NCBI GenBank assembly: GCA_963810535.1
Contig: CAWENW010000009.1
Coordinates: 16,363 to 80,362, forward strand
Origin: an uncultured Chloroflexia bacterium
GTDB taxonomy: Bacteria > Chloroflexota > Ktedonobacteria > Ktedonobacterales > JADMIN01
Length of the DNA: 64,000 nucleotides
Direction of reading: 5' to 3'
Made by a program: the position numbers and the translations under genes. Every line of letters starts with the position of its first letter. Position 1 is the first letter of the stretch. Shown here piece by piece: positions 22,453 through 24,882 of this stretch. The notes under the pieces were generated by a model. It was not told the DNA's origin and searched no databases. It saw only the letters and a list, made by a program, of their open reading frames with translations.

Positions 22453-22482
22453 TTGCCGGGCCGGGCGAGTTTGTGGTATACT
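22453..22482 (+). promoter_or_regulatory. candidate sigma-70-type promoter (TTGCCG - 18 nt - TGgTATACT)
   Basis: -35 at 22453-22458, extended -10 at 22474-22482. It sits in a gene-free stretch and points toward the attenuator-like structure, iscB and pyrR. Confidence 0.45.
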
Positions 22483-22486
22483 CAAC

Positions 22487-22606
22487 GGTCAAGAGAGACC
22501 TCCCTTTAATACCGGCACCGTGAGGCCGGGAAGGAGAAGTACACCGATGTTGCGTGCCCAGTTGCCCCCACCTTCTCTCCACTTCTGGAGGCGAAGGTAT
22601 TTTTTT
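22487..22606 (+). promoter_or_regulatory. candidate PyrR-dependent transcription attenuator (pyr leader)
   Basis: The hairpin GGUC-AAGAGA-GACC (22487-22500) resembles the PyrR-binding consensus aRUCCAGAGAGGYU. GGGAAGGAGAAG (about 22528-22539) can pair either with CCUCCCUU (about 22499-22506) or with the 5' arm of the terminator. The leader ends in the terminator at 22571-22606. Confidence 0.45.
22571..22606 (+). terminator. intrinsic terminator
   Basis: CCTTC-t-CTCCA-cttc-TGGAG-gc-GAAGG followed by TATTTTTTT (seven T at 22600-22606). Confidence 0.75.
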
Positions 22607-22930
22607 GCGGTGGAAAGGTGACCTCTTGTCAGGTACCCTATCCCCTGGAAGGGGATGGGCTTGTGAGGGAACGATACCCAAGCACGCCTGAACCTGACCA
22701 GACTCAGTCCGAACTCGGCAACGAGTTCTCGGACTACGATACCGGCGAATGTATAGGCACCTGTGGGTGACGTTCCAGCCCACAGCTCTGCGGCTCGTAG
22801 TTAAACCGACAGACAGGGTTCGAGTCCGTGCTACGAGCACCTGAAACCGCTGGATATCTTTGTCGAGGAAAACATCACCTGGACGCCGCAAGGCAACCAG
22901 AGGCCCACACGGGCAGAAACGGTGTGCGCT
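22605..22930 (+). ncRNA. candidate IscB omegaRNA (about 16-nt guide plus about 310-nt scaffold)
   Basis: Non-coding stretch immediately 5' of iscB packed with hairpins: 22640-22656; 22706-22735 (AGTCCGA-ACTCG-GCAA-CGAGT-tc-TCGGACT); 22761-22785 (CTGTGGG/CCCACAG); 22793-22838 (GCTCGTAG/CTACGAGC). Only shadow ORFs cover it. Confidence 0.55.
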
Positions 22931-24246
22931 ATGACCTACGTCTTTGTCGTCGATACCCAGAACCGTCCCCTCACCCCCGTTCACCCTGGAACTGCCAGGC
23001 GATTGCTCACGCTTGGCAAAGCGGCGGTGTGGCGACGCTACCCCTTCACCATCATTCTCAAGCAGGCCAAACCCGACGAGGCTGCTCCGCCCCTTCGTCT
23101 CAAGATTGATCCCGGCTCGAAGACCACGGGACTGGCCATCGTCCACGACCTAACCGGGCAGGTTCCGTTTGCGGCAGAACTGACCCATCGCGGCCAGCAG
23201 GTCTGCGATGGCTTGACGGCGCGTCGGGCCGTTCGCCGTGCTCGTCGCGCGCGTCATACACGCTATCGGCCGGCACGCTCCAATAACCGGACCAGAGCCG
23301 AGGGGTGGCTGGCCCCCTCGCTGGAGAGTCGCGTGCAGAACGTGCTCACCTGGGTACACCGGCTGGCACGCCTCTGCCCCATCACCGCGCTCTCCCTGGA
23401 ACTCGTCAGGTTTGATACCCACGTGATGCAGAATCCGCAGATCAGCGGAGTGGAGTATCAGCAGGGCGAGCTGGCGGGCTATGAAGTGCGGGAATACCTA
23501 TTGGAGAAGTGGCATCGGACCTGCGTGTACTGTGGAGCAACCAGCGTCCCGCTGCAGGTCGAGCATATTGTGCCCAGAAGCCGCGGCGGGTCTCATCGCA
23601 TCAGTAATCTCACACTCGCCTGTGCACGCTGCAATCTCGCCAAAGGCACACAGACGGCTGCTGAGTTTGGCCATCCTCAGGTCCAGGCACAAGCCAACGT
23701 GCCCTTGCACGATGCTGCGGCGGTCAACACGACGCGGTGGGCACTGTATCAGCGTCTTCGGAGCCTGGGTCTCCCGCTGGAAACGGCAAGCGGTGGACGC
23801 ACCAAGTGGAATCGCATCCAGCGGAACCTCCCCAAAACACATTGGCTGGATGCGGCCTGTGTGGGGACCAGCACCCCTGTCACACTTGGCGTTGCCTCCG
23901 TGCGGGCACTGCTCATCACGGCCAGGGGACGCGAGTCGCGGCAGATGTGCCGGATGAATTCGTATGGCTTCCCCAGGACAGCGGCCAAAGGCCAACGACG
24001 GATCAAGGGGTTTGTGACGGGTGATCTGGTGCGCGCCGTGGTGAGGTCTGGGACGAAGGTTGGGACCTACACCGGGAGGGTCGCCGTCCGTGCCTCCGGT
24101 TCGTTCAACATCACCACCCGTGGGGTGACCGTTGCGGGCATCAACCACCGGAATTGTCACGCCATCCAGCAGGCTGATGGCTATTCATATGAGAAAGGAG
24201 AACGCGCTTTCCTCCCGATCCCCGAAAGGGGATGGGTCTCCAGCGC
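22621..24246 (+). mobile_element. non-autonomous IS200/IS605-type element carrying iscB (boundaries approximate)
   Basis: Near-identical same-strand hairpins ATCCCC-tggaa-GGGGATGGG (22640-22659) and ATCCCC-gaaa-GGGGATGGG (24218-24236) bracket the omegaRNA region and iscB. No tnpA is present. Ends are extrapolated from IS608-like spacing, not observed. Confidence 0.5.
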
Positions 24247-24259
24247 GAATGTGCTATGA
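22931..24259 (+). CDS. iscB: IscB, OMEGA RNA-guided RuvC/HNH endonuclease
   Basis: Motifs in order: PLMP-type N-domain ([30 protein letters not shown]), Ruv[16 protein letters not shown], Arg-rich bridge helix [23 protein letters not shown], Ruv[46 protein letters not shown], Ruv[13 protein letters not shown], then a C-terminal tail. ATG at 22931 preferred to GTG at 22922. Confidence 0.85.
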
Positions 24260-24882
24260 ATTCCACGAATTCTATGGATTCTAAGAACCCGCCGGAATCC
24301 CCAGATATCTTGGAGTCTTCGCCAGACCAGGCAGGGGATGCTCCAACGGAAAAGGTCATCTTAACCGAAGAAGAGATGCGGCGCGCCATTTCGCGCATTG
24401 CCCATGAAATCATCGAGCGCAATTCCGGCGCCGAAGATCTCCTGCTGGTCGGATTGCAGAGTCGCGGCGTACCGCTTGCCGAGCGGCTCTCGGAGCGCAT
24501 CACCCAGTTCGAGACCGTCACTGTGCCCACCGCGGCCCTGGACATCCGTCGGTATCGCGATGACCTTCCCGACCGAGGCACGAGGCTCACCGAGCCCCAC
24601 CCGCAGCTCGACGTGACCATCGACAACGCGATCGTCGTGCTGGTAGACGACGTGCTCTTCACTGGTCGCACCGTCCGCGCGGCGCTGGAGGCGCTACTCG
24701 ACTACGGGCGCCCGCGCAAGGTACAACTGGCGGTCCTGGTAGACCGCGGTCACCGGGAGCTCCCGATTCGACCCGACTACGTGGGCAAGAATGTACCGAC
24801 TTCCATGAGTGAGAGCGTGCGGGTACAGCTACGCGAAACCGATGGACGCGACGCGGTGGTGCTCGTGCGCCAGCCGGAGTAG
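24256..24882 (+). CDS. pyrR: bifunctional pyr operon regulator / uracil phosphoribosyltransferase
   Basis: [26 protein letters not shown] and the PRPP motif [16 protein letters not shown]. The ATG overlaps the iscB stop (ATGA). About 30-aa N-terminal extension, so the start could be the ATG at 24274. Confidence 0.88.

Follow-up and report, generated by a model that had tools for sequence, protein, structure and literature searches.

The stretch of DNA analysed here, hereafter the window, comprises 64,000 nucleotides (nt) of contig CAWENW010000009.1 (assembly GCA_963810535.1) from an uncultured Chloroflexia bacterium, and it carries a pyr operon in which a mobile element of the IscB type lies between the operon leader and its first gene, pyrR. 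The DNA is GC-rich (61%) and of the Ktedonobacteria type within the Chloroflexota, and the closest matches to its PyrR protein come from metagenome-assembled genomes labelled Chloroflexia (79% identity) and Ktedonobacterales (75%). The layout was read from positions 22200–24900 together with a list of open reading frames (ORFs), and was compared with that of four related Ktedonobacteria/Chloroflexota genomes that hold orthologous pyr leaders (L001–L004). The features of the leader, the element and pyrR are as follows.

22453–22482, forward strand: pyr operon promoter, with -35 TTGCCG at 22453–58, an 18-nt spacer and an extended -10 TGgTATACT at 22474–82
22487–22500, forward strand: hairpin GGUC-AAGAGA-GACC (-4.0 kcal/mol), probably at or before the transcript 5′ end
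22500–22536, forward strand: PyrR-type binding (anti-antiterminator) hairpin CUCCCUUUAAUACCGGCACCGUGAGGCCGGGAAGGAG, placed by alignment to RF00515
22533–22578, forward strand: candidate antiterminator, GGAGAAG (22533–39) pairing with CUUCUCU (22572–78), 7 bp, -5.4 kcal/mol
22570–22606, forward strand: intrinsic terminator, a bulged stem of 12 bp (22570–98) and seven T (22600–06), -15.5 kcal/mol
22612–22627, forward strand: orphaned pyrR Shine-Dalgarno (SD) sequence and spacer GGAAAGGTGACCTCTT, the presumed guide, with GGAAAGG at 22612–18 and a 9-nt spacer
22628–24255, forward strand: non-autonomous ISC/IscB element (IS200/IS605 superfamily), 1,628 bp, 5′-GTCAGG...GTGCT-3′, delimited by copy alignment
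22628–22878, forward strand: omegaRNA scaffold (HEARO RNA, RF02033), 120.8 bits over the full-length model
22640–22656, forward strand: subterminal hairpin ATCCCC-TGGAA-GGGGAT, 12 nt inside the omegaRNA-side right end (RE)
22931–24259, forward strand: iscB, 442 amino acids (aa), with PLMP, RuvC/RRXRR and HNH domains
24218–24233, forward strand: subterminal hairpin ATCCCC-GAAA-GGGGAT, 22 nt inside the left end (LE), within the iscB coding region
24256–24259, forward strand: ATGA, the presumed target and target-adjacent motif (TAM) of the element, which holds the pyrR start codon ATG and the iscB stop TGA
24256–24882, forward strand: pyrR, 208 aa, a bifunctional regulator/uracil phosphoribosyltransferase that scores above the cut-off of the NCBIfam PyrR equivalogs

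That the element was inserted at this locus, and that its ends lie where they are placed above, we regard as nearly certain. In an alignment of copies from three loci, sequence similarity sets in precisely at GTCAGG (22628) and continues through ...GTGCT-ATGA, and the flanks are unrelated. Besides the copy at pyrR, further copies lie 5′ of a gene for a kaiC-like AAA ATPase (L082; L100) and 5′ of fur (L083); the copies at the three loci share 94–97% DNA identity and all read GTCAGG...CT|ATGA, and more distant relatives of the element end before ATGA, ATGG or GTGA. The window IscB falls in a six-member cluster at 90%. The same pyrR insertion is present in a second assembly (L081, 99.8% identity over 7.3 kb), and the junction sequences are identical in both assemblies. 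The copy L100 (1889–3523) also lies on the L081 contig, ∼85 kb apart, such that the pyrR and kaiC-like insertions occur together there, and the IscB at this kaiC-like site is called at 340 aa, either truncated or affected by an indel.

The first-pass annotation, made from the letters of the window alone, had placed an IscB element downstream of a PyrR-type attenuator and ahead of the pyrR start codon, and had proposed a comparison with related pyr leaders. This comparison bears the placement out: in all four genomes a homologous promoter, hairpin and terminator are followed by an SD sequence and the pyrR ATG within 14–80 nt, and neither HEARO nor iscB is present at these pyr loci, whereas in the window both occupy the interval between terminator and pyrR. 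The orthologous pyrR genes start with ATGA in three genomes and with ATGG in one; PyrR orthologues of 75–79% identity align from residue 1 or 5, and the N-termini of the L002 and L001 PyrR proteins align from the ATG region at 24256. The element was set at 22628–24255, with ATGA assigned to the host as the target, because the pyrR orthologues open with ATGA or ATGG and because N|ATGA targets, as well as 5′-GTCA termini, are known for ISC elements (PMC4810608). The SD region of L001 reads GGAGAGGTGACGAGC-ATGA and is homologous to the GGAAAGGTGACCTCTT that adjoins the element on its left; the L001 SD GGAGAGGTGAC equals GGAAAGGTGAC of the window, which now stands immediately left of the element. 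Removing the element in silico gives GGAAAGG-TGACCTCTT-ATG, an ordinary SD sequence with a 9-nt spacer, and as judged from sequence the left flank is the former pyrR SD and spacer. The deletion suggested earlier (22621–24246), meant to restore a normal SD/ATG spacing, comes close, but its ends are 7–9 nt off those mapped here. The insertion claim entails an empty-allele junction that reads ...GGTGACCTCTT+ATGAATTCC.

The element is non-autonomous, since it holds an omegaRNA and iscB only, and it lacks inverted terminal repeats, a transposase gene and a target duplication, none being shared by its flanks ...CCTCTT and ATGAATT. Its two subterminal hairpins are near-identical, and their distances of 12 and 22 nt from the respective ends are similar to those in IS608 (roughly 10 and 19 nt). 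The omegaRNA scaffold, which scores well against a gathering score of 83 bits for RF02033, lies 5′ of iscB (ATG at 22931) in the same orientation, and at the transposon right end, as placed by Meers et al. (10.1101/2023.03.14.532601). The IscB protein matches Pfam RRXRR (1.4e-67) and HNH as well as NCBIfam guided_IscB (437 bits), and it matches solved IscB structures (PDB chains) down to 1e-37. As the motifs IDPGS, EHIVPR...N and HWLDA are present, nothing in the protein suggests a dead nuclease, and a domesticated, nuclease-dead IscB was rejected in view of the intact motifs and the several near-identical mobile copies. The iscB frame runs through the LE-side hairpin without a stop of its own, and its TGA is formed by the last three bases of the target ATGA, such that the stop/start overlap at 24256–24259 is read directly in the sequence, as first described. 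By its sequence features, all of those that define the group being present, the element belongs to the IscB/omegaRNA ISC group of IS200/IS605, and the published description of non-autonomous ISC elements (PMC4810608) fits its anatomy. The finding adds one more case of known kinds, informatively arranged, and does not represent a new system.

The leader upstream of the element is very probably a PyrR-type attenuator. A simple sigma-70 consensus test over 22000–25000 returned the pyr promoter as the sole sigma-70-like site, and its -10 and -35 boxes, which the first reading had already recognised, are kept in L001–L004 (-10 TG-TATA(A/C)T, -35 TTGC). Scanning of 22350–22700 at a permissive threshold against 4,227 Rfam families gave RF00515 as the only matching family; the match covers 22498–22606 over the full model length with 29.5 bits (E 0.028 in a 351-nt search), below the RF00515 gathering score of 54 bits. 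A scan with this model had been proposed as a check on the leader; the full-model match was obtained and the score fell short. Matches at the equivalent place in the four orthologous leaders score 48.3, 43.6, 33.0 and 32.2 bits, all below gathering, and matches above gathering (56–60 bits) lie directly 5′ of pyrR in two Dehalococcoidia, which are more distant Chloroflexota. Because of this score we call the leader a PyrR-type attenuator of a divergent lineage, and not a certified RF00515 member. UUUAA, GAGGC and AAGG are invariant across the five leaders. The loop of the binding hairpin in the window is a lineage variant (ACCGUGAG versus CCAGAGA) whose 5′ half departs from the consensus; the variant loop CCGGCAC(C/U)G(U/A)GAGGCCGG is common to the window, L001 and L002, and the canonical loop is found in L003 and L004 (CCAGUCCAGAGAGGCUGG and CCAGUCCCGCGAGGCUGG). 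In the alignment of the five leaders, a sample with little statistical power, 90% of cells are paired versus 40–66% in slid controls, the helices are paired at 83–100%, and the compensatory exchanges comprise one G-C/A-U in the upper stem and one A-U/G-C at the terminator base. The PyrR-type hairpin motif is unique in the window (none is expected by chance), and a motif search for a second PyrR-type site in the window returned none.

The hairpin GGUC-AAGAGA-GACC, which had been taken at first for the PyrR-binding site, has to be abandoned in that role. L003 and L004 lack it, its conservation in L001 and L002 is only loose, and RF00515 places the site at 22500–22536 in the window and at the equivalent position in the orthologues. 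Moreover, as this hairpin begins 5 nt past the -10 box, its 5′ arm lies at or before the likely +1. The alternative pairings proposed for the switch, in contrast, do exist: the segment GGGAAGGAGAAG can form a helix either with CUCCCUU, which belongs to the lower stem of the binding hairpin, or with CUUCUCU, which belongs to the 5′ arm of the terminator, GGGAAGGAG closing the binding hairpin and GGAGAAG being able to pair with CUUCUCU. This 7-bp helix is the sole competing helix found, and a strong antiterminator was rejected on that ground. The intrinsic terminator with its seven U was confirmed; the terminator and T-run are kept in L001–L004, with a compensatory base pair, and a simple terminator scan overlooked the structure because the stem is bulged.

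Taken as a whole, the locus is probably best explained by insertion at an N|ATGA target on the pyrR start codon together with the regulatory consequences of that position. The element, on this reading, inserted at a target whose ATG is the pyrR start, and its insertion cut off the pyrR ribosome-binding site from the start codon of the gene. By position, the omegaRNA guide would be the 16 nt GGAAAGGTGACCTCTT that adjoin the scaffold, the length of 16 nt being taken over from characterised IscBs. With this assumed length, the origin of the guide in the pyrR ribosome-binding region, as put forward in the first-pass annotation, follows directly from the mapped boundary. The guide is unique in the window, where no other target with three or fewer mismatches was found. 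IscB and its omegaRNA would cut the empty allele (...CCTCTT|ATGAAT...) and spare the occupied one, which would be no target because GTCA, and not ATGA, follows the guide there; retention and homing would thereby be favoured, and the published retention/homing model fits this predicted cutting.

As reported by Meers et al. (10.1101/2023.03.14.532601), IscB omegaRNAs need transcription from outside the element, the guide being the flank 5′ of the scaffold. In the window, the U-run of the terminator ends 5 nt before the guide, so that terminated transcripts would carry no guide. With the guide encoded beyond the element and no second promoter in sight, read-through transcripts from the pyr promoter would be the sole source of omegaRNA and iscB, i.e. 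when PyrR is unbound and pyrimidines are scarce, and the pyr genes would be expressed from the same read-through transcript. We infer, with a modest lean in its favour, that this co-transcription would be gated by attenuation. Control of omegaRNA and iscB by the pyr promoter and its attenuator, and read-through of the element by the pyr operon, would agree with the geometry of the locus and with the published models. The 18 nt ahead of the pyrR ATG contain no SD sequence (the closest stretch of purines, AAAGGGGAUGGG, is 19–30 nt upstream), and pyrR would therefore depend on iscB translation, with termination–reinitiation at the UGA/AUG overlap. We hold such translational coupling of pyrR to iscB to be an even call. 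Within 22612–22691, a TTG at 22626, 7 nt past GGAAAGG, opens a 21-codon ORF into the 5′ part of the omegaRNA; it is probably meaningless, though ribosome loading could affect folding of the omegaRNA.

Downstream of pyrR the gene order pyrR-pyrB-pyrC-carA-carB, as first described, is borne out by gene profiles, and the gap between pyrR and pyrB is only 4 nt. The remaining genes of the operon are listed below.

24887–25912, forward strand: pyrB, identified by profile matches
25915–27303, forward strand: pyrC, identified by profile matches
about 27290–28544, forward strand: carA, with apparent frameshifts in the assembly
28531 to about 31800, forward strand: carB, with apparent frameshifts in the assembly

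When compared with their orthologues in L001, carA and carB fall into several ORFs, with frame changes near 27787–27794, 29742–29748 and ∼30976–31001. The frame change in carA consists of one extra G, which is absent from the 99.6%-identical assembly L084, and assembly indels are therefore likely.

A number of points weigh against the explanation given above. In the leader, the RF00515 score in the window is below threshold, the loop is a variant with a divergent 5′ half, and the antiterminator is the weakest part of the attenuator model, being predicted at -5.4 versus -15.5 kcal/mol for the terminator, such that a preference for read-through is unexplained by the predicted thermodynamics alone. 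The guide length, the TAM preference and the nuclease activity are assumptions from relatives, the consensus scan may miss a weak or non-sigma-70 promoter within the element, and the carA/carB frameshifts could mean decay of the operon. Finally, an exact look-up of the window PyrR gave only the insertion-bearing contig and no separate empty allele, the flanks of the other copies do not occur in the window, and no locus examined spans one of the reconstructed empty junctions.

These points feed several other explanations of the locus. If iscB, pyrR-pyrB or both were transcribed mainly from a promoter inside the element, attenuator control would be lost and the omegaRNA alone would need upstream transcription. 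A sigma-70 consensus test would miss weak or divergent promoters, and a host that had lost pyr expression would select for any internal promoter; however, no promoter-like site was seen in 22483–25000, at the kaiC-like, fur and GT4 loci the same element is set within a string of genes that share its orientation, and a general orientation bias has been reported by Meers et al. (10.1101/2023.03.14.532601), all of which renders a main internal promoter unlikely. We consider it more doubtful still that the insertion is a recent, damaging accident, with pyrR poorly translated, regulation broken and the operon decaying. The displacement of the SD by 1.6 kb, with none close to the pyrR ATG, the split carA and carB and the IscB of 340 aa at the kaiC-like site of the sister assembly would all be accounted for by such damage, but pyrR keeps its full length and has the same sequence in two independent assemblies, an assembly indel is the likely cause of the carA frame change, and the stop/start overlap recurs at independent sites.

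A leader that possesses a terminator but does not respond to PyrR, whether through another attenuation mechanism or as a relic, appears improbable. The scores below gathering in the window and its four closest relatives, the variant loop and the weak antiterminator would be expected of such a leader; against these stand RF00515 as the sole match among all the families scanned, with a full-model match in five orthologous leaders, the canonical loops of L003 and L004, the invariant UUUAA, GAGGC and AAGG, and a bona fide pyrR as the first gene. Least probable is a GT|GA target, with the element running CA...AT and an ancestral GTG start of pyrR turned into ATG by the insertion: copy alignment alone does not tell the two readings apart, because the element begins GT-CA and ends AT-GA, and Kapitonov et al. 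(PMC4810608) inferred GT|GA for several Ktedonobacter ISC families and report GT|GG as well as GT|GA among the targets of the K. racemifer ISC2 families, but all four orthologous pyrR genes start with ATG and none with GTG, and in the canonical IS200/IS605 mechanism the target stays undivided to one side of the element. The two targets differ in the empty allele that they imply, which would read ...CCTCTTATGAATT for N|ATGA and ...CCTCTTGTGAATT for GT|GA, the sequence joined to GGAAAGGTGACCTCTT being ATGAATTCCACG and GTGAATTCCACG, respectively.

Insertion at N|ATGA on a start codon, the explanation preferred for pyrR, is not confined to this locus. All three sites of the family share two features: a co-oriented gene begins at the target ATG, and the flank that supplies the guide contains a purine-rich SD-like motif. 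A survey of 27 independent insertions was compiled from 13 metagenome/genome sites and 14 usable sites on annotated plasmids; a metagenome scan with IscB gave only 15 loci, several of them short or degenerate. The 3′ end of the element adjoins the start codon (ATGA/ATGG) of a co-oriented gene in 13 of the 27, and within one subfamily iscB ends on the TGA of this ATGA. At 8 of 13 distinct sites on the metagenome/genome contigs the abutting ATG is the exact beginning of a long ORF; these sites are listed here with the position of the ATG.

Window, 24256: pyrR
L082, 4326: kaiC-like gene
L083, 4335: fur
L086, 3326
L090, 1797
L101, 3290: GT4 glycosyltransferase gene
L114, 1735
L121, about 2871: lacI-family gene

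A ninth contig site (L091) has a broken ORF. L111 (∼1712–1751, 3327) and L114 (∼120–159, 1735) hold an identical IscB (P0007) and the same 40-nt 5′ flank/guide, and their 3′ flanks differ; rearrangement, recombination between copies or a chimeric assembly are possible. On the annotated plasmids, from cyanobacteria, Deinococcus and Cupriavidus and with IscB identities of 52–57%, the annotated coding sequence starts at the abutting ATG at 5 of 14 usable sites (L123, L126, L127, L129 and L133). In two unrelated plasmids among these an IscB element lies between parA and parB, with the annotated parB start directly abutting the element end.

L126: Deinococcus sp. KNUC1210, NZ_CP092193.1
L129: Trichormus variabilis 0441, NZ_CP047244.1

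For comparison, the window contains 404 ATGA, of which 60 are non-coding and 9–15 stand at gene starts, so that gene starts make up about 13–20% of non-disruptive ATGA. Under this null the observed 13 of 27 has a P of about 1e-5 to 1e-3, a value that comes from a crude greedy-ORF gene model and a small, hand-inspected sample, and from a null that merges targeting with retention. We suggest, tentatively and as a possibility that we rate below an even chance, that docking on start codons may be an adaptation of those IscB elements whose target is of the ATGA type. ATGA may serve as 'AUG plus A', with the guide being the SD and spacer of the host gene; iscB, which in this subfamily has no stop of its own, borrows its UGA from the target, and the UGA/AUG overlap may re-couple translation of the host gene to that of iscB; and the element may take over the promoter and regulation of the host, here a metabolite-sensing attenuator, with the host gene still expressed. 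The orientation bias of the insertions is already known from Meers et al. (10.1101/2023.03.14.532601). Start codons or a stop/start overlap are unmentioned in the literature searched, an incomplete search to which an earlier description may be external; the Cas9d/HEARO paper and a 2026 OMEGA review contain nothing on start codons, and HEARO is unmentioned in Weinberg 2010.

Among known systems the nearest are the ISC2/IscB-omegaRNA elements, e.g. ISC2 of Ktedonobacter racemifer (Kapitonov 2016, PMC4810608; Meers 2023, 10.1101/2023.03.14.532601). The element shares with these a HEARO omegaRNA 5′ of an IscB with RuvC and HNH, the absence of a transposase, subterminal hairpins, the 5′-GTCA terminus, an ATGA target without duplication, a guide encoded outside the element, co-orientation with upstream transcription and a host clade in the Ktedonobacteria. 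It differs in that its IscB family shows 56–73% protein identity to anything outside its own cluster, and in that the target ATG is a gene start codon and the target supplies the iscB stop, the latter two points being undiscussed in the literature searched. With the pyr attenuators of Bacillus subtilis (RF00515) the leader has in common the promoter, the binding hairpin (UUUAA bulge, GAGGC loop/stem) and the U-run terminator, followed by pyrR-pyrB-pyrC-carA-carB as in the B. subtilis pyr operon. Unlike those attenuators it has a variant loop, a score below threshold and an antiterminator that is predicted to be weak; in addition, the window operon has a single attenuator (the pyrR-pyrB gap leaving 4 nt), and a 1.6-kb mobile element lies between the leader and pyrR.

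IStrons, which combine a group I intron with an IS200/IS605-type element, belong to the same transposon superfamily and likewise limit the harm to the host gene that they interrupt. IStrons leave the RNA by splicing, whereas the element in the window has no ribozyme and its harm would be limited by non-coding docking together with stop/start coupling. In TldR and other domesticated OMEGA effectors, as in the window, an RNA-guided protein stands beside regulatory DNA of the host, and its guide matches a 5′ region of the host. Unlike TldR, the window IscB keeps catalytic-type motifs, is one of several mobile copies that are 94–97% identical, and has a guide that is simply its flank; nothing indicates its domestication. 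The RNA-family scans also located an RNase P RNA in the window (38898–39321), an M-box riboswitch 5′ of the L001 pyr locus (L001 4861–5045), a cobalamin riboswitch near the kaiC-like insertion site (L082 1289–1527) and a fluoride riboswitch in L005 (258–335).

The supply of a guide-bearing omegaRNA is a practical question for IscB elements, since their guides are encoded outside the transposon. The pyr locus offers a natural case in which the upstream unit is fully defined, with one conserved promoter, one attenuator and a 5-nt spacer, and in which the setting of omegaRNA supply by host regulation is directly testable. It also illustrates how an element may sit in an essential biosynthetic operon without destroying it. 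The start-codon pattern, if true, would provide general information on where the ancestors of Cas9 persist, and would imply that their guides are enriched for ribosome-binding regions. In this Ktedonobacteria-type host, a Cas9-ancestor element has a host ribosome-binding site as its presumed guide and its RNA supply should follow a metabolite-sensing attenuator, which makes the locus a moderately interesting test bed.

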